From positions 1 through 25,436 of IMG/VR virus record IMGVR_UViG_3300025018_000500: a DNA stretch of 25,436 nt, one strand, 5' to 3'. How positions within the stretch are numbered: position 1 is the stretch's first letter; the number at the start of each line of letters is the position of its first letter. Below, in pieces: positions 22-25,436 of this stretch. Both the position numbers and the translations under genes were made by a program. A model generated the notes under the pieces. The model searched no databases and had not been told where the DNA came from. It saw nothing but the letters and a program-made list of their open reading frames with translations. The stretch comes from a virus. Taxonomy: Duplodnaviria; Caudoviricetes.

Positions 22-546
22 CTATCTTTGACCCCACACCTCGATCTGCCCCGATGTCATATTCCCGACATCAGGGGTGCCGCTCGATGTCGAGCCGCCA
101 AAGATTCGGATGCGATTGATCGGATTGGTCGAAGCGAGAAATTGGATCAGCTCGCTCGGCGCTTGGCTGTAAACCTGCGGCATGATCCCGCCGCCGGGTT
201 GCCATACGGTGATATTGCCGCTTCGCTCCGCTGCGGCACCTGTAAAATGAAACCCGATAGATGAACTGTTGGTCAGAACGCCATCAACGCTTGTGCGCGC
301 GTAATTTCCGTTAGCATTGAACCAGCTGGACCCGCCGTTGATGCTGAATTGCATACACCGCTGAACCGCCGCAGCGTGAACCACGCGGTCGACGATCACC
401 TGAAAAATGCTCATGCCCGTTACATCGACTTCAACGATAGGCGCGGGGCTCGCCGCCAAATTCACATCGGCCAAAGCGACGAACGGCCTGCCGCGCCGGA
501 CAAACCCGGAGCCGAAGCCTAGAAAACCGAATCCTGCCCCCCTCAC
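22..546 (-). CDS. Small fibre/spike-like virion protein, 174 aa, beta-rich C-terminal domain
   Basis: C-terminal part of ORF 22..882. The GTG at 546 overlaps the tailspike TGA (GTGA coupling). N-terminus MRGAGFGFLGFG; beta-rich end INRIRIFGG...MTSGQIEVWG; visibly more AT-rich than its neighbours. Function inferred from position. Confidence 0.65.
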   Translation of the reverse strand: MRGAGFGFLGFGSGFVRRGRPFVALADVNLAASPAPIVEVDVTGMSIFQVIVDRVVHAAAVQRCMQFSINGGSSWFNANGNYARTSVDGVLTNSSSIGFHFTGAAAERSGNITVWQPGGGIMPQVYSQAPSELIQFLASTNPINRIRIFGGSTSSGTPDVGNMTSGQIEVWGQR

Positions 547-2837
547 AGCCGCTGCACCTTCACAACAGGCAAGGACGAGAAGGTCAGCACCACCGCTGCG
601 CCGGACGGGATCAGCACCTGCCTTCCGGTCGAAGTGCCGATCTGATCGCCGCCAAGGCTCACGTTCGATACCGTGCCCCCGGTGATCGTCATGCTTTCCT
701 TTGCACCGCTGTTGTTGGTGTAGGTCCAGGGCGAAGCGCCCACCGCCACAGCGGTTGCGGTCGCTTGGTTGTTGTAACCGGGGCAAGCCTCGATCATCAG
801 ATTGGTCTGGCTTGCGCCTACATCGATCCCGCCGGTTGTATTCCCGCGCACCACCGCACCGATGATCGAAGTCCGGTCGCACCCGGCTGCGATGCTGATG
901 CCGAAGCCCTGACTGTTCCCTGCAACAGACACGCTATCGCCATATCTGCCGCCCGCGATGTGCGTATCAGCTGCACCCGCCGCGATCCGCAGGCCGTGAT
1001 AGGTGCCCGCCGCCTCGGTTCCGTTGTCGGTTGATTCCACCCCGTCCAAGCGCACATCGAGCGGGCCAGCTTCGCGCAAGATGCCGTGCTGCGCATTCCC
1101 CATGCAGCGGGTGCCTTCACCAAGCACCACGTTGCCACGGAAAGCAGCACCGATGCGCAGGCCGTTGCCCGTCTTGCACGAACCGATCCAGTTGATCCCA
1201 GCGCCGAAAAAGCCCTCGCCGCGCACCAGATCGCAGCCGACAAAATAGTTGTTGTCGCATTCGAGGTTGAGCGAGAACGTCCATACCGGGTAACTCGTCC
1301 CGGTGTTGGCGCTGTCCTCCATCGCAAAGCCGCGCGCGCCGTTCAGCAGCGCGGTATAACCCAGCACCAAAGAATAGGCGAAGCTGTCGTGGATAATGTG
1401 CGTGAGCGCATTATGGGACACGAACCGCAGCTTCGCCGTTCCGCTGTCAATATCCGTGGTGAACACGCTATCGGGGCTGGCGCCCGAAGGATAGCCGCTC
1501 GGCGCTGATCCACCCGCCACTCCGGCCTGCACACATTGCCAGATGGCGTTATTGGCTACGAAGTGGTCGCCGACCGCCAGCGACATGCCGCCCGTGAAGG
1601 TCTTGCGGTTGCCGGGGCCGGCAGCAACAGCCGCAGGCCAAGGATTGTCGCTGATCTGATCTTCGCACACCGCCCGGAACGACCGGGAGCTATTGCTCCC
1701 GGTGAACAGCGTTCCCACGGTGCCGAGCATGTAACGGCTGACAAGCCGCCAACGGCATTCCGTCGCCCCGTCAAGAAGCAGGCCGTTCCAGCCATATTCC
1801 GTGCGGATGTCCACGCGGCACGCGAAGGAGGCGCCCGTCAGCTTGACCGAATAGCCGCTGGTCTTGCGCACGGTCGGCCAGAAGCACACTTCGCTGATTT
1901 CGCTATGCTGGCAGGCGGAAAAGGTGATGGCATCGCCCGAGGTAAATGCCTCGCGGATCATCGTGCCCGCGCTACTTTTGCCCGCGCCGATGATGCGGAC
2001 ATTGTTCAGCGCCGTGAAGGTGAGCGGCGAATTCAGTGTATAGGTGCGCCGCGACAAGCGCACCACGCCGCCGCCGCCTGCCGCCAGCACAGCAGCAACC
2101 GCGCGGGTGATACAGGGGCCGTCATGCGCATCGGCCACCAACTTGAACTGGTCGGCCCACACTTCGCGCTGGAGCGCAGTTTGCAGGTTTTCATCGCGCG
2201 CTTCGGCCCCGGCCTGCTTGAACGCCACCAGCGCCGCGCCGCCCACCGCAGCAAGGTCAGCGCGCAGCGCCGCGTCAGATCCCGCAACCGGCGCGGTCGC
2301 AGGAACAGGCAGGCCCGTTCCGGCCGCGCCGACATAGTATTTGCCCGCAAACGGGGCGGCGAGAAACCGACGCAGCTTGCCGTCGCGGTAGGCGAGCAAA
2401 TCGCCGTCGATCAGGTCGGAGAAATCGACTTCCGGCGGCAATTGCCCGCGCGGCACCCGCAGCGCCAATTCCGTTTCGCGCGCCTGTTCCTGCGCAATCC
2501 GCGTCAGGCGGTCGAGGTCGGCCTCGACAGCGCGGCCCGGCGGAATCTTGAACGGGTCATACTCGCTCGGCTGCTCGACAGTCGTTTCGCGCTGGGCATG
2601 GAACACATCGCCGATGGGCCAGCTGCCAATGGCCGTGATCGAGCCATCGGCACCATTGACGGGCAAGGTGATGTTGTAGTGAACGCCGCGCAGCAGCATG
2701 GTGGGAATGCCGCTCGCGGGCTCATGGTAAACCGCGATGTCGTCCGCGTCGGTGAAACTGATCCCCGGCAACGCCTCGGGGGCTTGCGCTGATCCGGGCA
2801 TGTAGCGGTGAAAGGTTTGCTGCGCGTTGACCGACAT
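543..2837 (-). CDS. Tail fibre/tailspike, 764 aa: T7 gp17-like N-terminal adaptor plus pectate-lyase-like beta-helix (putative depolymerase)
   Basis: N-terminus FTDADDIAVY...RETTVEQ...EADLDRLTRIAQE resembles podovirus fibre anchors. GAALVAFKQAG...DGPCITRAV...VVRLSRRTY resembles a beta-helix cap, and G/N-rich beta-helix rungs follow. Located directly after the ejection genes. Confidence 0.85.
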   Translation of the reverse strand: MSVNAQQTFHRYMPGSAQAPEALPGISFTDADDIAVYHEPASGIPTMLLRGVHYNITLPVNGADGSITAIGSWPIGDVFHAQRETTVEQPSEYDPFKIPPGRAVEADLDRLTRIAQEQARETELALRVPRGQLPPEVDFSDLIDGDLLAYRDGKLRRFLAAPFAGKYYVGAAGTGLPVPATAPVAGSDAALRADLAAVGGAALVAFKQAGAEARDENLQTALQREVWADQFKLVADAHDGPCITRAVAAVLAAGGGGVVRLSRRTYTLNSPLTFTALNNVRIIGAGKSSAGTMIREAFTSGDAITFSACQHSEISEVCFWPTVRKTSGYSVKLTGASFACRVDIRTEYGWNGLLLDGATECRWRLVSRYMLGTVGTLFTGSNSSRSFRAVCEDQISDNPWPAAVAAGPGNRKTFTGGMSLAVGDHFVANNAIWQCVQAGVAGGSAPSGYPSGASPDSVFTTDIDSGTAKLRFVSHNALTHIIHDSFAYSLVLGYTALLNGARGFAMEDSANTGTSYPVWTFSLNLECDNNYFVGCDLVRGEGFFGAGINWIGSCKTGNGLRIGAAFRGNVVLGEGTRCMGNAQHGILREAGPLDVRLDGVESTDNGTEAAGTYHGLRIAAGAADTHIAGGRYGDSVSVAGNSQGFGISIAAGCDRTSIIGAVVRGNTTGGIDVGASQTNLMIEACPGYNNQATATAVAVGASPWTYTNNSGAKESMTITGGTVSNVSLGGDQIGTSTGRQVLIPSGAAVVLTFSSLPVVKVQRL

Positions 2838-2890
2838 CGACCTGATCCTGCCCGAAGGGCCGTGGCGGTGGGGACCGGAACGCAGGCCGC

Positions 2891-2919
2891 GTATTACGTC
2901 TTACGTCAAACCCTGTCAA
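2891..2919 (-). promoter_or_regulatory. Putative sigma70-like promoter for the tail-fibre gene
   Basis: Minus strand TTGACA (2919-2914), 17-bp spacer, TAATAC (2896-2891) in the 86-bp intergenic gap. Overlapped by ACGT/ACGT/ACGC at a 7-bp period. Confidence 0.6.
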
Positions 2920-15452: not shown

Positions 15453-16079
15453 CTATCTCCCTTCGGGGCCATAGGTGGTGCGGCGCGCGGAAAGCCAATC
15501 GCTGCGCTGGGTGATAGCCCGGCGCTGCTTGTGTCCGCTCGATCGCCCGTCGATACGCTTGGCGTGGGCAAGCGCCTTGTCGGCCTCAACCCTGATGAGG
15601 TCCTTGATCGACTCGTCCTGGGTGATCGGCTCGGCAAGCCGCGCCGCGATTTCCAGTTCCAGCGCCCGCTCGAAAGCCGGGCTCCACGCAGCAATGTTCT
15701 GGCCTTTGGTGATCGAGATATAGCGGATCGGCAGCGGGGCGGGCGTATCGGTCAGGACACAACCGCCTTCCTCGATCCCCTCGAACCACGCATCGCCATC
15801 TTCATGCGCGGGAGGCAACCAGCGCAGACTGTCCTCGGGCAAGGTGAAAGCGTAGAGATAGCCGAATTCCGGGGCGGTGGCGGTTTCATTGAGCATCCGG
15901 CGGGCAATCGACCAATTCCACGGATGCGCCGCCAGCATGAAGCGAACGGCCCCATCCCACACCGATGCGGCGCTGGGAGCGGGGCCAAGGGAATCGTTGA
16001 CGGACTCGATGCGACGCGTCGATCCCAGCTCATTCAGAGCGGCGTTGATGATCGAAGTTTGTGACGCGCCTGCACTCAT
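15453..16079 (-). CDS. Tail adaptor / tail tubular protein A (T7 gp11-like), 208 aa
   Basis: IINAALNELG...HPWNWSIARRML...YAFTLPEDSLR...FERALELEIAARLAEPIT pattern; position after capsid and cement genes. Confidence 0.9.
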   Translation of the reverse strand: MSAGASQTSIINAALNELGSTRRIESVNDSLGPAPSAASVWDGAVRFMLAAHPWNWSIARRMLNETATAPEFGYLYAFTLPEDSLRWLPPAHEDGDAWFEGIEEGGCVLTDTPAPLPIRYISITKGQNIAAWSPAFERALELEIAARLAEPITQDESIKDLIRVEADKALAHAKRIDGRSSGHKQRRAITQRSDWLSARRTTYGPEGR

Positions 16080-16091
16080 GGTTCAGCCCTT

Positions 16092-16161
16092 GAGAGAAAA
16101 GGCGGCGCGCCAGCCAGAGCGTCCCGGTCCCCACCATGAAAGCCCGAAACTGGCGCGCCGC
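16092..16161 (-). terminator. Terminator-like hairpin at the end of the capsid-cement unit
   Basis: GCGGCGCGCCAG...CUGGCGCGCCGC followed by CUUUUCUCU. Position analogous to post-capsid terminators, but the loop is unusually long. Confidence 0.5.
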
Positions 16162-16207
16162 AGGTTCCCGCCGCTGGGAGAGAAAAAAGGAGGATGCGGC
16201 GGGAAAT
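16092..16207 (-). ncRNA. Candidate two-hairpin 3'-UTR RNA with guide-like loops
   Basis: Stem 1: 16196-16205 / 16165-16174 (10 bp), loop AUCCUCCUUUUUUCUCUCCCA. Stem 2: 16150-16161 / 16102-16113 (12 bp), 36-nt loop. Loop regions are complementary to the leaders at 25199-25226 and 2867-2883. Confidence 0.55.
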
Positions 16208-16212
16208 CAGCG

Positions 16213-16626
16213 TCAGCGGTGGGAAGTCACCACGTTGGTCTTGATCGTGCCCGTGCTGGGCAGCGCGCCGCTCGGCGTGATGATGATTTCCTCGGTTTCC
16301 GTGGTCAGCGCGATGCCGAGCGTAATCGGCGGCAAACGCACCTGCCGCGTGGCGTTCGGGCCGGCAGCTGCCGGGCCATACTTCGACGGGTTCGACGGCG
16401 TTCCGATCTGGAAGTTGATCGTGGACAGGTTGCCAGAGGCTTCGATCCAGATTTCCTCGATCTGATTGGCCGGGCCGATCTGCGCGATCTTGATGTCCTC
16501 GGTCGTGCCGCCATCAGTCACGAGGTTGATGAAGTTGCAATGCGAATAACGCTTCGCATTGTGGCTGGTCCCCGGAGCGAGCCGGAGCGGATCGGTTGCG
16601 CTGAATGCACTTCCATACTTGGTCAT
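16213..16626 (-). CDS. Capsid cement/decoration protein, 137 aa
   Basis: Purine-rich SD GAAAGGGAAAG. Beta-rich and T/G/P-rich (INFQIGTPSNPSKY...TGTIKTNVV). Directly downstream of the major capsid gene, as in BPP-1/epsilon15-like phages. Confidence 0.7.
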   Translation of the reverse strand: MTKYGSAFSATDPLRLAPGTSHNAKRYSHCNFINLVTDGGTTEDIKIAQIGPANQIEEIWIEASGNLSTINFQIGTPSNPSKYGPAAAGPNATRQVRLPPITLGIALTTETEEIIITPSGALPSTGTIKTNVVTSHR

Positions 16627-16732: not shown

Positions 16733-17647
16733 TTACGATTCAGTGCATTCGAGAATGTAGCACTTCTTCTCGTCGGTGCGGACGACCGCGCTGCGGGCCT
16801 CGCCATAGACCTGAATGTTCAGCTTCTTGTCCCGACGCGGGCCGATGTCGCCGAAGAATTCGGTCCACACACCGCGATGCAGGCCCGAAGGCACGAAACA
16901 CGGCAGGCGGCGCGTGGTCGAAACCTTGGTCAGCGCCCCGCCCTGCGGATAGGCCCGCGCGCTGTCCGGGTTGAATTCGATGAACCGGAAGCCCATGAAC
17001 GGCTTGATTTCGCCGCGCGCCAGCGGCGTGCTGCCGCTGTAATCCATGTTCCGGTATTGCTCGATATTCATGAGGTCCGTGACCTGCTTCGGCGTGACGA
17101 GCAGGATCGGCATTTCCAGCTCGAAATCGACATCGTTCAACGCCATGCGCTCGCGCATCGTTTGCAGCTTGGTCAGCGTCAGCCCCGATGCCGCCGCCGC
17201 CACCACGTTCGCAGCAGCGAAAGGCACAGCGGTATCGCCGGTCGGACCCTGCCACGCGCTGCCGAAATAGCCCTTGAGCCATTCGTCGTCATGGACGCGC
17301 TGCGCCGCAGTAGCGACACGCTGGGCCAACGGCGAACCGAGGGAAACCTCGGTCACGGCCTGGTCGTTCTTGTCGAACATCACCGCCACATCGCGGGCCT
17401 TGCCGACCTTGATCCAGCGGGCCACGCTGTCGGGATCGGTCAGGTTGGTGTCCTCAAGACGGCCGACCTGATCGGACATCGAGATTTCGTCAAAACGGTT
17501 CTCGATGCGGTGCGACGACTGCCCCGAATAGTTCTCGGTGCTGCCGACCAGCGGGTAAAGCAGGCCGGGCCGCTGCCGCATTTCATAGGTTACGGCATTG
17601 TTGTAGCCGACATTGCGATGCTGTTCTGCAAATGCGGGATCGGGCAT
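16733..17647 (-). CDS. Major capsid protein, 304 aa
   Basis: ATG 17647 preceded by AAGGAG. HK97-fold-like motifs (AAQRVHDDEWLKG; GLTLTKLQTMRERM; VTPKQVTDLM; KPFMGFRFI; AVVRTDEKK). Follows the scaffold gene. Confidence 0.92.
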   Translation of the reverse strand: MPDPAFAEQHRNVGYNNAVTYEMRQRPGLLYPLVGSTENYSGQSSHRIENRFDEISMSDQVGRLEDTNLTDPDSVARWIKVGKARDVAVMFDKNDQAVTEVSLGSPLAQRVATAAQRVHDDEWLKGYFGSAWQGPTGDTAVPFAAANVVAAAASGLTLTKLQTMRERMALNDVDFELEMPILLVTPKQVTDLMNIEQYRNMDYSGSTPLARGEIKPFMGFRFIEFNPDSARAYPQGGALTKVSTTRRLPCFVPSGLHRGVWTEFFGDIGPRRDKKLNIQVYGEARSAVVRTDEKKCYILECTES

Positions 17648-17659
17648 GGTATTCTCCTT

Positions 17660-17848
17660 GGTCAAAAAAGCGAATGATGGGTTCGGTTCTTCGACCGGGG
17701 AGGCGGCTTGATGAAGCCGGGCCGATCTAGGCGCTATCGCGCGCCGTAAGCGTGGCTGCTTTCGCCATCAGCACCGAGGCCGGGCAAATCCCGGAGAGGC
17801 CGGTTGACCGGAGAGGGCGGTAACGGGCCGCCACTCACCCGGTCGTAG
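17660..17848 (-). ncRNA. Structured 5' leader of the capsid gene, about 190 nt
   Basis: At least five hairpins, plus a 5' segment (CGACCGGGUGAGUGGCGGC) able to pair either locally or with a distal copy near 17692-17707. Confidence 0.55.
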
Positions 17849-17851
17849 GAA

Positions 17852-17880
17852 GAAATGATACGTTTTGCGTGTCGCGTCAA
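17852..17880 (-). promoter_or_regulatory. Putative promoter for the capsid operon
   Basis: TTGACG (17880-17875), 17 bp, CATTTC (weak -10). Contains ACGC/ACGC/ACGT at a 7-bp period and lies just upstream of the structured leader. Confidence 0.5.
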
Positions 17881-20784: not shown

Positions 20785-20813
20785 CACTTGCCTTCCCCCT
20801 TCCAGTCAGTCGG

Positions 20814-23359: not shown

Positions 23360-24021
23360 CAGCCTTCATCCTCGGCTTCGGTGAATTCGGCATCGACCAA
23401 CTGGTTATCGACCAGTCGCAATCCCGCCAGATCGGTTGCCTCGATTTCGCCCTTCGTCAGCGCCCGCCCGATGATTTCGGCGGCGCGGCGCGTGTCGGCA
23501 TCAAGCGCGTCGAACGCGCTTGCCGCGCCGCCCATGCCGGGCATCACGATCACGGCATCCACATTGCTCGTAATCTTCGCCTCGACCGGCTTTTTCGAGT
23601 GGACATACTCGGCCACCGACTTCGCCGCCGCCAGCTGGATGTTCAGAACCTTGATTGCGATGTCGCCGCGCTTGGAATCCTTACCCGGATCAGCCGCGCG
23701 GACCATTTCGCACAAGTCGAAGAACGGCATGGCATAGAGGCTTGCCATAGCCTCGACCGGATCGCCGAACTTGTGAACGATCAGCTTGGCGAGGTCGGCG
23801 CTGCGCTTGTTTTTCGAGCCTTTCGGCCTGCCGCGCCCGCGCGCATCGCCACCCGGTTGCTGCCGCACCAGCTGGAACACATTGGCAGGCAGTTTGCCCG
23901 TGTCTGGCTCGCGGAATGCGTCCAGCTGCTCCGGCTGCGCGCCGCCAAGCGGGCCGAGCCGCCCTTGGCTCTCCATTTCATCACGGATCGCGCCTTCAAG
24001 GCTGCTGGGCTCGGTTGACAT
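23359..24021 (-). CDS. terS: Terminase small subunit, about 220 aa
   Basis: Coupled to terL (TGATG). AT-hook-like RGRGRPKGSKNKRS and AKSVAEYVHSKKP motifs. Start placed at ATG 24021. Confidence 0.8.
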   Translation of the reverse strand: MSTEPSSLEGAIRDEMESQGRLGPLGGAQPEQLDAFREPDTGKLPANVFQLVRQQPGGDARGRGRPKGSKNKRSADLAKLIVHKFGDPVEAMASLYAMPFFDLCEMVRAADPGKDSKRGDIAIKVLNIQLAAAKSVAEYVHSKKPVEAKITSNVDAVIVMPGMGGAASAFDALDADTRRAAEIIGRALTKGEIEATDLAGLRLVDNQLVDAEFTEAEDEG

Positions 24022-24099
24022 CAGCCCCGCCCCGAATCTAGCCTGCTGAAACACACCCAACCGACCGGATCATGGCGCGCAGCACACCCCCGCACCCCA

Positions 24100-24805: not shown

Positions 24806-25044
24806 AATGTTCCGAATGTTCCGACCCTAGAACGTGGATAGAACGGAGAAAGCCAAGCGAAAGCAAGGGACTAGGCCGAGGCGTTCCAATGTTCCACGCG
24901 CGCGCCACGCGAGCCGCGCGCGCTGCGCTCCACGCGGGAGGCTTTTGCCGAGGCCAGAACGGAACACCGGAACGCAGCGCCAACCTATTGAAAAGACACA
25001 AGCGCAAGCCCGCACCGCCCGTTATCCACTGGAACAGCCGGAAC
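24806..25044. repeat. Mirror-symmetric GTTCC/GGAAC repeat array, origin-like
   Basis: GTTCC at 24809, 24818, 24883 and 24891; GGAAC at 24961, 24969, 25031 and 25040; symmetric about 24927-24928 around a CG-alternating core. Confidence 0.75.
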
Positions 25045-25162
25045 GCTCGACGGATCGCCACGCGCACCAGCTGGGCCGCTGATATTATGCCCGCAAATCC
25101 GGGTCCGGGTTTGGGCCAAGCGATTGAGAGCGCGCGGCAATTCCCCTGAAACTGTGGGCAAG

Positions 25163-25191
25163 TTGACGCGGCCCGGTTTTAACGTTAGACG
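25163..25191 (+). promoter_or_regulatory. Putative sigma70-like promoter for the divergent gene
   Basis: TTGACG (25163-25168), 17 bp, TAGACG (25186-25191). ACGT at 25182, 25189 and 25196. AGGAGG SD downstream. Confidence 0.6.
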
Positions 25192-25234
25192 TAAAACGTC
25201 TCGCAGTTGGGACGAAGCAAAGGAGGCTTCCCGA

Positions 25235-25436
25235 ATGTCACGCAACACCCGCAAACCCGCCCGCCGCCTCACCTATGCGCAGCGCCGCCGCGCCCACCAG
25301 GCGCGCCTTGCCGCGTCCTCGATCTGCTGCACGGCGCTCTCGACCGCTGCGCTGTTTGTCGGCGCGCTCGCAGCTGACAGCGGCGCGGTCGCCTATGCCG
25401 CTGGATCGTGGGCCGCTTGTGCCGTGTTCGGCGCGC
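25235..25436 (+). CDS. Divergent putative membrane protein, partial (runs off the window)
   Basis: AGGAGG 8 nt before the ATG at 25235. Open to the window end: MSRNTRKPARRLTYAQRRRAHQARLAASSICCTALSTAALFVGALAADSGAVAYAAGSWAACAVFGA (basic N-terminus, two hydrophobic stretches). Not in the supplied ORF track. Confidence 0.7.
   Translation, partial: MSRNTRKPARRLTYAQRRRAHQARLAASSICCTALSTAALFVGALAADSGAVAYAAGSWAACAVFGA

Follow-up and report, generated by a model that had tools for sequence, protein, structure and literature searches.

The small RNAs DsrA and RprA are anti-antisense activators of translation, which act by pairing with the 5′ leader of the target mRNA. The C4 RNA of phage P1 and the CI RNA of phage P4 are small, structured phage RNAs with a long closing stem and an exposed guide, which varies with the target; they act as repressors, and lie in the transcript that they control. 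In the Salmonella prophage Gifsy-1, the IsrK sRNA is described as binding a translationally inactive phage mRNA in trans, which results in its activation (PMC4825925), and the accounts of PreS/LPR1 of lambda, which acts on dnaN, and of StxS, which acts on rpoS, also describe the activation of translation through pairing with the 5′ leader (10.1101/2024.10.31.621285; PMC12197685). The STnc6030 RNA of BTP1 is reviewed as an antisense repressor of the tailspike mRNA that confers superinfection exclusion (PMC12197685), while the cuckoo RNAs of the Alphaproteobacteria are presented as two to four adjacent hairpins, each with the motif CCUCCUCCC (PMC4615179).

The element described here lies on the minus strand of a 25,436-nt stretch of DNA, which is the whole of a virus record and is referred to below as the window. 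By analogy, it is likely to be an anti-antisense activator similar to IsrK in its action, outside any Rfam family. Like IsrK, it would be a prophage-type RNA activating a locked phage mRNA, as described for IsrK and predicted here, although IsrK acts on its own read-through transcript, whereas the present guide is located after the capsid genes, with its target, a separate tailspike leader, 11-13 kb away. Unlike PreS/LPR1, StxS, DsrA, and RprA, which address host mRNAs through short seeds, the pairing here is phage-internal, 9-27 nt in length, and specific to the lineage. As in the case of STnc6030, the RNA is aimed at a tailspike mRNA, but it is encoded far from this target and is predicted to be an activator. 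No match to IsrK or to any other Rfam family was found at the element, either in the window (E up to 5) or in 20 relatives (Rfam 15, E up to 1), where a single weak hit was unrelated. The assignment of the element to the C4/CI antisense RNAs was rejected, given that it has no Rfam C4 match and that its target has its own promoter-like site some 13 kb away. The first of its two hairpins shares with the cuckoo RNAs a C/U-rich, anti-SD-like loop motif on a variable stem, with the loops of the relatives reading CCUCUCCC or CCCUCCC, in contrast with the CCUCCUCCC of the cuckoo family. This hairpin was also rejected as a cuckoo RNA, as CCUCCUCCC is absent from both strands of the window (0 copies), and the two to four motif hairpins of that family are replaced here by a single CU-rich loop, with the interior of the second hairpin being purine-rich.

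The minus strand of the window carries the virion operon of a podophage, with the terminase, portal, capsid, tail tubes, internal proteins, and a 764-aa tail fibre or tailspike. The major capsid gene (16733-17647, minus strand; PF19821) is followed on its 3′ side by a 137-aa gene (16213-16626, minus strand), the stop codon of which lies 7 nt before the start of the element, while the gene for a tail tubular protein (15453-16079, minus strand) is immediately downstream of the element. The tail fibre or tailspike gene (543-2837, minus strand) encodes a protein of the beta-helix type, for which the nearest Atlas cluster is tail fibre (0.90), with no sequence match in Pfam, PHROG, or the PDB. On the plus strand, gene 25235 (25235-25436), which is truncated at the end of the contig, is the first gene of a leftward accessory cassette, and its product has no family match. 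The capsid shares 24-34% identity with the capsids of Pelagibacter HTVC010P-like and Ralstonia DU_RP_II-like phages, and 40-70% with many uncultured proteins. As the named relatives lie in the genomes of Novosphingobium, Citromicrobium, Sphingorhabdus, and Sphingomonas, the host is presumed to be a sphingomonad. Inspection by eye of the Ralstonia phage DU_RP_II revealed the same gene order with a different intergenic layout, and both the element and the leader parts are present in two cultured strains, Novosphingobium huizhouense c7 and Sphingomonas hankookensis KCTC 22579. In one related prophage (G086; L197 9400-14700), the packaging genes and the divergent cassette appear to have been swapped for unrelated genes, with the capsid, the element, and a matching tailspike leader being retained.

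The 137-aa gene and the tail tube gene are separated by 133 nt, which contain two hairpins followed by a pyrimidine tail, and the fold of the region has a z-score of -3.97, with none of 200 shuffles being equally stable. Hairpin 1 (16165-16205, minus strand), which was the element originally flagged, is optional and variable in the family; its 10-bp stem (16205-16196 / 16174-16165) presents a 21-nt CU-rich loop (16195-16175; AUCCUCCUUUUUUCUCUCCCA). Hairpin 2 (16102-16161, minus strand) is the conserved core, with a 14-bp closing stem around a 32-nt interior, and is followed by a pyrimidine tail (16092-16101, minus strand), which is weakly terminator-like and almost a direct repeat of the U-rich part of loop 1. 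Neither this site nor the divergent leader discussed below is an assembly artefact, since the contigs of an independent DNA run (X2) agree letter for letter over 15546-16316 and 24946-25436; no variants were found at either site in four DNA runs.

Elements were collected from related loci, of which 38 were kept after 11 had been dropped, either as duplicates and near-duplicates (L092, L082, L088, L033, L034, L081, G009, and L098) or as distant elements that were divided differently by the hairpin parser (L099, L102, and L097). Eight of 10 later genomes were added, the two others being duplicates (G205 of G039, and G456 of L084). Hairpin 2 was found throughout the family, even where hairpin 1 is absent, and a pattern scan of viral contigs recovered no close copies of it. 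The purine-rich interior of the hairpin shows complementarity to the opening bases of the tailspike leader, which lies 11-13 kb downstream, and in the window this guide (16119-16135, minus strand) covers 17 nt, with 16 Watson-Crick pairs and one G-U pair, directed at the 5′ end of the leader (2867-2883, minus strand); the pairing may extend to 16145. The complementarity runs to 18 of 18 nt in one relative (G001) and to 16 of 16 in two others (G003 and L051), and at least a dozen different pairs of guide and target sequences exist across the family.

The guide and the leader change together. In the first 25 phages, the cognate leader ranked first for 12 guides and among the top three for 20, with a cognate excess of -8.65 kcal/mol (permutation p = 5e-5, a value which, like the other permutation p-values given here, overstates the independence of relatives that share ancestry). 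With the eight later genomes included, the complementary run averaged 10.8 nt, against 5.7 nt for the comparison (n = 33, p = 1e-4), and the cognate leaders of these eight genomes ranked 1, 15, 2, 8, 1, 6, 6, and 5 of 33. The leader run was the longest of all runs in the fetched DNA in just 17 of the 33 phages. Complementarity and covariation are thereby demonstrated at the level of the sequences, and the guide has long complementarity to a 5′ leader from another locus, maintained by covariation, as would be expected of an activator. This also supports the proposal, made from the sequence of the window, that one loop of the RNA addresses the fibre transcript, and the element is itself a conserved candidate structured RNA. 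The covarying pairs have a mean net energy of -10.2 kcal/mol, which reaches -10 in 14 of the 33, with one pair producing no interaction. In none of the 33 predicted interactions is the closing stem of hairpin 2 invaded by 4 nt or more. The tails contain at least four U residues in 8 nt in just 20 of 32 cases, and the five pairs returned by RNAalifold for a MAFFT alignment of 29 copies of hairpin 2 reflect variation in length and do not represent evidence. The wobble tests, in which the sense direction was stronger in 14 of 33 phages, with three G-U pairs against four other internal mismatches, do not decide between RNA and DNA pairing.

In 32 of the 33 phages, the folding models place the target segment of the tailspike leader in a helix with the gene's ribosome site and start region, which encloses an inner hairpin. 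When the segment is blocked, the mean cost of opening the ribosome site falls from 15.3 to 8.4 kcal/mol, and the decrease exceeds 1 kcal/mol in 30 of the 33; a control with a fixed window gave -5.4 kcal/mol for the tailspike leaders against -0.3 for 250 other leaders (p = 9e-10). The ribosome sites of the tailspike genes are also more closed than the background (15.2 vs 11.1), while the divergent leaders are, by contrast, open (mean 6.0). The tailspike leader is thus predicted to sequester its ribosome site in cis, and to be freed by pairing with the guide.

A promoter-like site, TTGACA-17-TAATAC, precedes the tailspike leader (2890-2919, minus strand) and includes an operator-like motif, ACG-N4-ACG-N4-ACG (2890-2906). 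The same motif is found at 25182-25198 in the divergent promoter-like site TTGACG-17-TAGACG (25163-25198, plus strand), with a third copy (17861-17877) at the promoter-like site of the capsid gene (TTGACG; 17861-17880, minus strand), from which the transcript ending in the element probably originates. The window contains four matches to the motif, at these three sites, against 0.26 expected. In the relatives, the tailspike and divergent promoters carry a common motif that is specific to each phage (n = 18, p = 5e-5). Additional copies occur 18-20 kb upstream in three of 12 phages, and the capsid gene is preceded by the motif in two of 12. We infer from this distribution that the shared motif is the operator of a phage repressor. 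A scan for consensus promoters and terminators detected none of these promoter-like or terminator-like sites.

Taken together, the sequence comparisons and the folding models make it reasonably probable that hairpin 2 is an RNA key which opens a self-locked tailspike leader, and which forms the 3′ end of the capsid-operon RNA. The tailspike gene would be transcribed from a promoter of its own, with one operator controlling this promoter together with those of the capsid and the divergent gene, and upon derepression the tailspike mRNA would be made with the ribosome site locked. The capsid transcript would either terminate in hairpin 2 or be trimmed to it, with the hairpin serving as a stable 3′ end, and the guide would then capture the 5′ segment of the tailspike leader, which would free the ribosome site and leave the closing stem intact, so that the output of the tailspike would follow the transcription of the capsid operon. 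That this control activates the tailspike mRNA is a prediction from the folding models, and the tailspike promoter, the discrete hairpin 2 RNA, and the activation itself are all putative.

If this is correct, the output of the receptor-binding protein would be tied at the RNA level to the transcription of the capsid operon, and the lock must match the key, given that phages exchange their tailspike genes. The set of guides and leaders would thus represent naturally diversified, partly orthogonal pairs of activators and leaders. No description of a riboregulator formed by a guide and a tailspike leader was found in the literature searched, although the candidate alignments of PMC10690425 could hold the motif without a function; for this large catalogue of viral candidate RNAs, the analysis covered 21 of the 23 table rows with sphingomonad hosts. 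The portions of a 2025 review (PMC12197685) considered here mention no capsid or tail-fibre activator.

The other readings of the locus are not all mutually exclusive, and the first of them concerns hairpin 1, which is an optional module, perhaps a stabiliser or a generic anti-SD loop. It is possible, although doubtful, that loop 1 is a generic anti-SD module with an action similar to that of the cuckoo RNAs, directed at host mRNAs or at the portal gene and not at gene 25235. Loops reading CCUCUCCC or CCCUCCC sit atop unrelated stems in seven phages, with a related CUCCUUU loop in another (G032), and the account of the cuckoo family describes pairing between C-rich loops and ribosome sites (PMC4615179). 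With accessibility counted, the ribosome site of the portal gene (20785-20800, minus strand) is the best partner of loop 1 in the window, at -13.3 kcal/mol, against -10.4 for the divergent site. The portal match is not, however, common to the other phages with CU-rich loops, nor was any other orthologous phage target of the CCUCUCCC loops found among them, and the trait is scattered on the capsid tree, with seven changes against a shuffled mean of 7.4. In a clade without hairpin 1 (L001, 11440-11470; L008; L005), the inner hairpin of hairpin 2 itself has a CU-rich loop (UCCCUCCU, AUCCUUCCU, or CUCUCCU), which could, from its sequence, pair with the SD of the next gene.

A reversal of roles is unlikely. 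In this case, the tailspike leader RNA, or in some lineages an antisense RNA over the start of the small terminase, would regulate the late transcript by changing termination or stability at hairpin 2, for which the P4 CI and P1 C4 RNAs are analogues. A promoter-like site, TTGACA-18-TAGCCT (24015-24044, plus strand), overlaps, in antisense orientation, the start codon (24021) of the gene that precedes the large terminase in the window, and a site of this kind is present over the start of that gene in 28 phages. In some members of the family, the antisense transcript begins with a match to the guide (n = 28, p = 0.002, with ranks of 1-2 in eight phages), and the late leader therefore holds a second copy of the guide. 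In the window, however, the antisense RNA has no match to the guide of hairpin 2 (rank 26 of 28), and both the predicted burial of the leader segment in its own ribosome-site helix and the persistence of the closing stem upon binding argue against regulation in this direction. To judge from these matches, two transcripts can be addressed in the family through the single guide of hairpin 2, although not in the phage of the window.

The sequence-only reading had proposed one RNA with two guides, in which loop 1 would silence gene 25235 by covering its SD, while hairpin 2 would act on the fibre. This is improbable, and the same low probability applies to the version in which the second guide is a recent gain in the lineage of the window, through the lengthening of an ancestral CCUCUCCC loop. 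The alignment on which the proposal was based is correct: positions 16166-16193 and 25199-25226 align without gaps, with 20 of 28 identical and four more that are G-U compatible. The second of these segments (25199-25226, plus strand) is the 5′ end of the divergent leader and begins at the predicted +2 of its transcript. It is also true, as claimed, that AAAGGAGG (25219-25226) lies in the loop of a GAAGC/GCUUC hairpin upstream of the ATG at 25235, a presentation that is suited to kissing. Nine of the 28 matched positions (16166-16174), however, are the 3′ arm of the stem of hairpin 1 itself, and the loop contributes an 8-bp anti-SD run and a 5-bp UCCCA/UGGGA run, in which the UGGGA partner is itself part of the hairpin of the leader, where it pairs with the UCCC that precedes the start codon. 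The 28-nt duplex, at -34.3 kcal/mol, would require 18.5 to open the stem and 12.2 to open the leader, which leaves a net value of about -3.6, and, with accessibility counted, the strongest pairing is that of the 12-nt SD part, at -10.2 kcal/mol. As this equals the mean net energy of the guide and tailspike leader pairs, it is covariation, and not energy, that separates the claims for the guide and for loop 1.

The match was ranked among 932 start regions from 28 phages and their flanking host DNA, taken from a crude gene caller written for the analysis that includes false starts, with the energies being obtained from a home-made, RNAup-like script and not from IntaRNA. By hybrid energy, the site was near the top, with four of the 932 regions matching or beating it for the loop (the top 0.5%), one being as good for the loop plus the arm, and two of the 102 GGAGG regions being as good. 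With accessibility included, which was scored for the 432 of 932 regions with a loop hybrid of -10 or better, 39 of the 932 and nine of the 102 GGAGG regions scored as well, and the site was second of 17 within the window. When the leader was shuffled upstream of the SD and only the SD was kept, the loop gave p = 0.10 and the 31-nt match p = 0.003, and when the leader's own hairpin was held fixed, p was 0.55 for the loop and still 0.014 for the 31-nt match, values that ignore the selection of this pair by eye among many possible ones. The match thus appears to exceed that of an average SD, with the remainder beyond chance being located in the stem arm, which is not available.

In 26 phages, a divergent promoter and leader with the same architecture lie 9-11 kb upstream of the element, and in 18 of these leaders the SD lies in a small hairpin loop, with GGAGG also being present in 18 of the 26. 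The window's own leader ranks first among these 26 homologous leaders by hybrid energy with its loop 1, and the short loops of the relatives reach about -8 kcal/mol on the window's leader, in comparison with -20.6 for the window's loop. No covariation was found between loop 1 and the divergent leader, however, either in 25 phages (complementary run of 5.6 vs 5.5 nt, p = 0.27) or in the six with loops of at least 7 nt (4.8 vs 4.8, p = 0.58), and the version of the test based on energy gave p = 0.07 and 0.34, respectively. When hairpin 1 or the capsid leader was tested against the other leaders, all p-values were above 0.06. In the two other phages that have both a CCUCUCCC loop and a recoverable divergent leader (G001 and G658), the leader ranks 25th and 13th of 26 and pairs over just 3-4 nt with the loop, while G086, a capsid sister with a short loop, has no recognisable divergent leader within the 5.4 kb scanned. 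The GGAGG leader occurs despite a loop of 6 nt or less in 10 phages, and without any hairpin 1 in three. The SD-in-loop hairpin of the divergent leader is thus a family-wide feature, which is kept where the loop of hairpin 1 has 3-6 nt or is absent.

Given these comparisons, the match of hairpin 1 to the divergent gene is likely to be, for the most part, a side effect of the sequence that is usual for ribosome sites. Loop 1 of the window owes its extra length to a U-rich stretch that repeats the pyrimidine tail of hairpin 2, and the repeat would provide a simple origin for the extra anti-SD bases. Of the dual-guide proposal, the structured RNA with a loop addressing the fibre is supported by covariation, while the role of the CU-rich loop as a second guide for gene 25235 is not, with covariation being absent and the SD hairpin being kept without the loop. 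A two-way switch from early to late expression is correspondingly improbable; here, hairpin 2 would unlock the tailspike and the lengthened CU loop would silence the first gene of the accessory cassette. The wider reading, of a re-addressable, modular family of riboregulators that gains targets, with the cassette under the same operator, has equally poor prospects.

It is very unlikely that the complementarity reflects a long-range contact within a single late transcript produced by read-through, or that a protein assists recognition between RNA and DNA at the start site of the tailspike, with no free sRNA, since, while both sites lie on the same strand, the tails are weak terminators, and the wobble tests are undecided, the tailspike has its own promoter-like site with the phage-specific operator motif, the lock on the ribosome site points to control at the RNA level, and none of the 23 window proteins scanned was a candidate guide-binding protein.

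The 5′ leader of the capsid gene (17650-17850, minus strand) is also structured, with a length of approximately 200 nt and a z-score of -4.0. It had no Rfam match in the window or in 20 relatives, and no covariation with other leaders. Inspection by eye of 36 loci revealed the strongly conserved motifs CCGGCCUCYCCG, GGCCCCGG, GGCGAAAGCAGCC, GCCAGAYCGGCCC, and CCUCCCCGGUCGAAA, with the last hairpin adjoining or overlapping the SD; the CUCYCC motifs resemble the loop of hairpin 1, and perhaps represent a shared protein site. In two relatives (L157, 17755-18759, and L207, 4209-5756), a ribosome-site hairpin formed by CGGC, a purine loop, and GCCG is repeated before several genes of a leftward cassette located between the primase and the packaging genes, one product of which presumably resembles the ArdC-type antirestriction proteins. 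In the window, a cluster of GTTC/GAAC repeats (24809-25045) lies between the packaging genes and the divergent promoter, and includes one GAAC-N7-GAAC spacing, which we take to be similar to the alphaproteobacterial LexA box.
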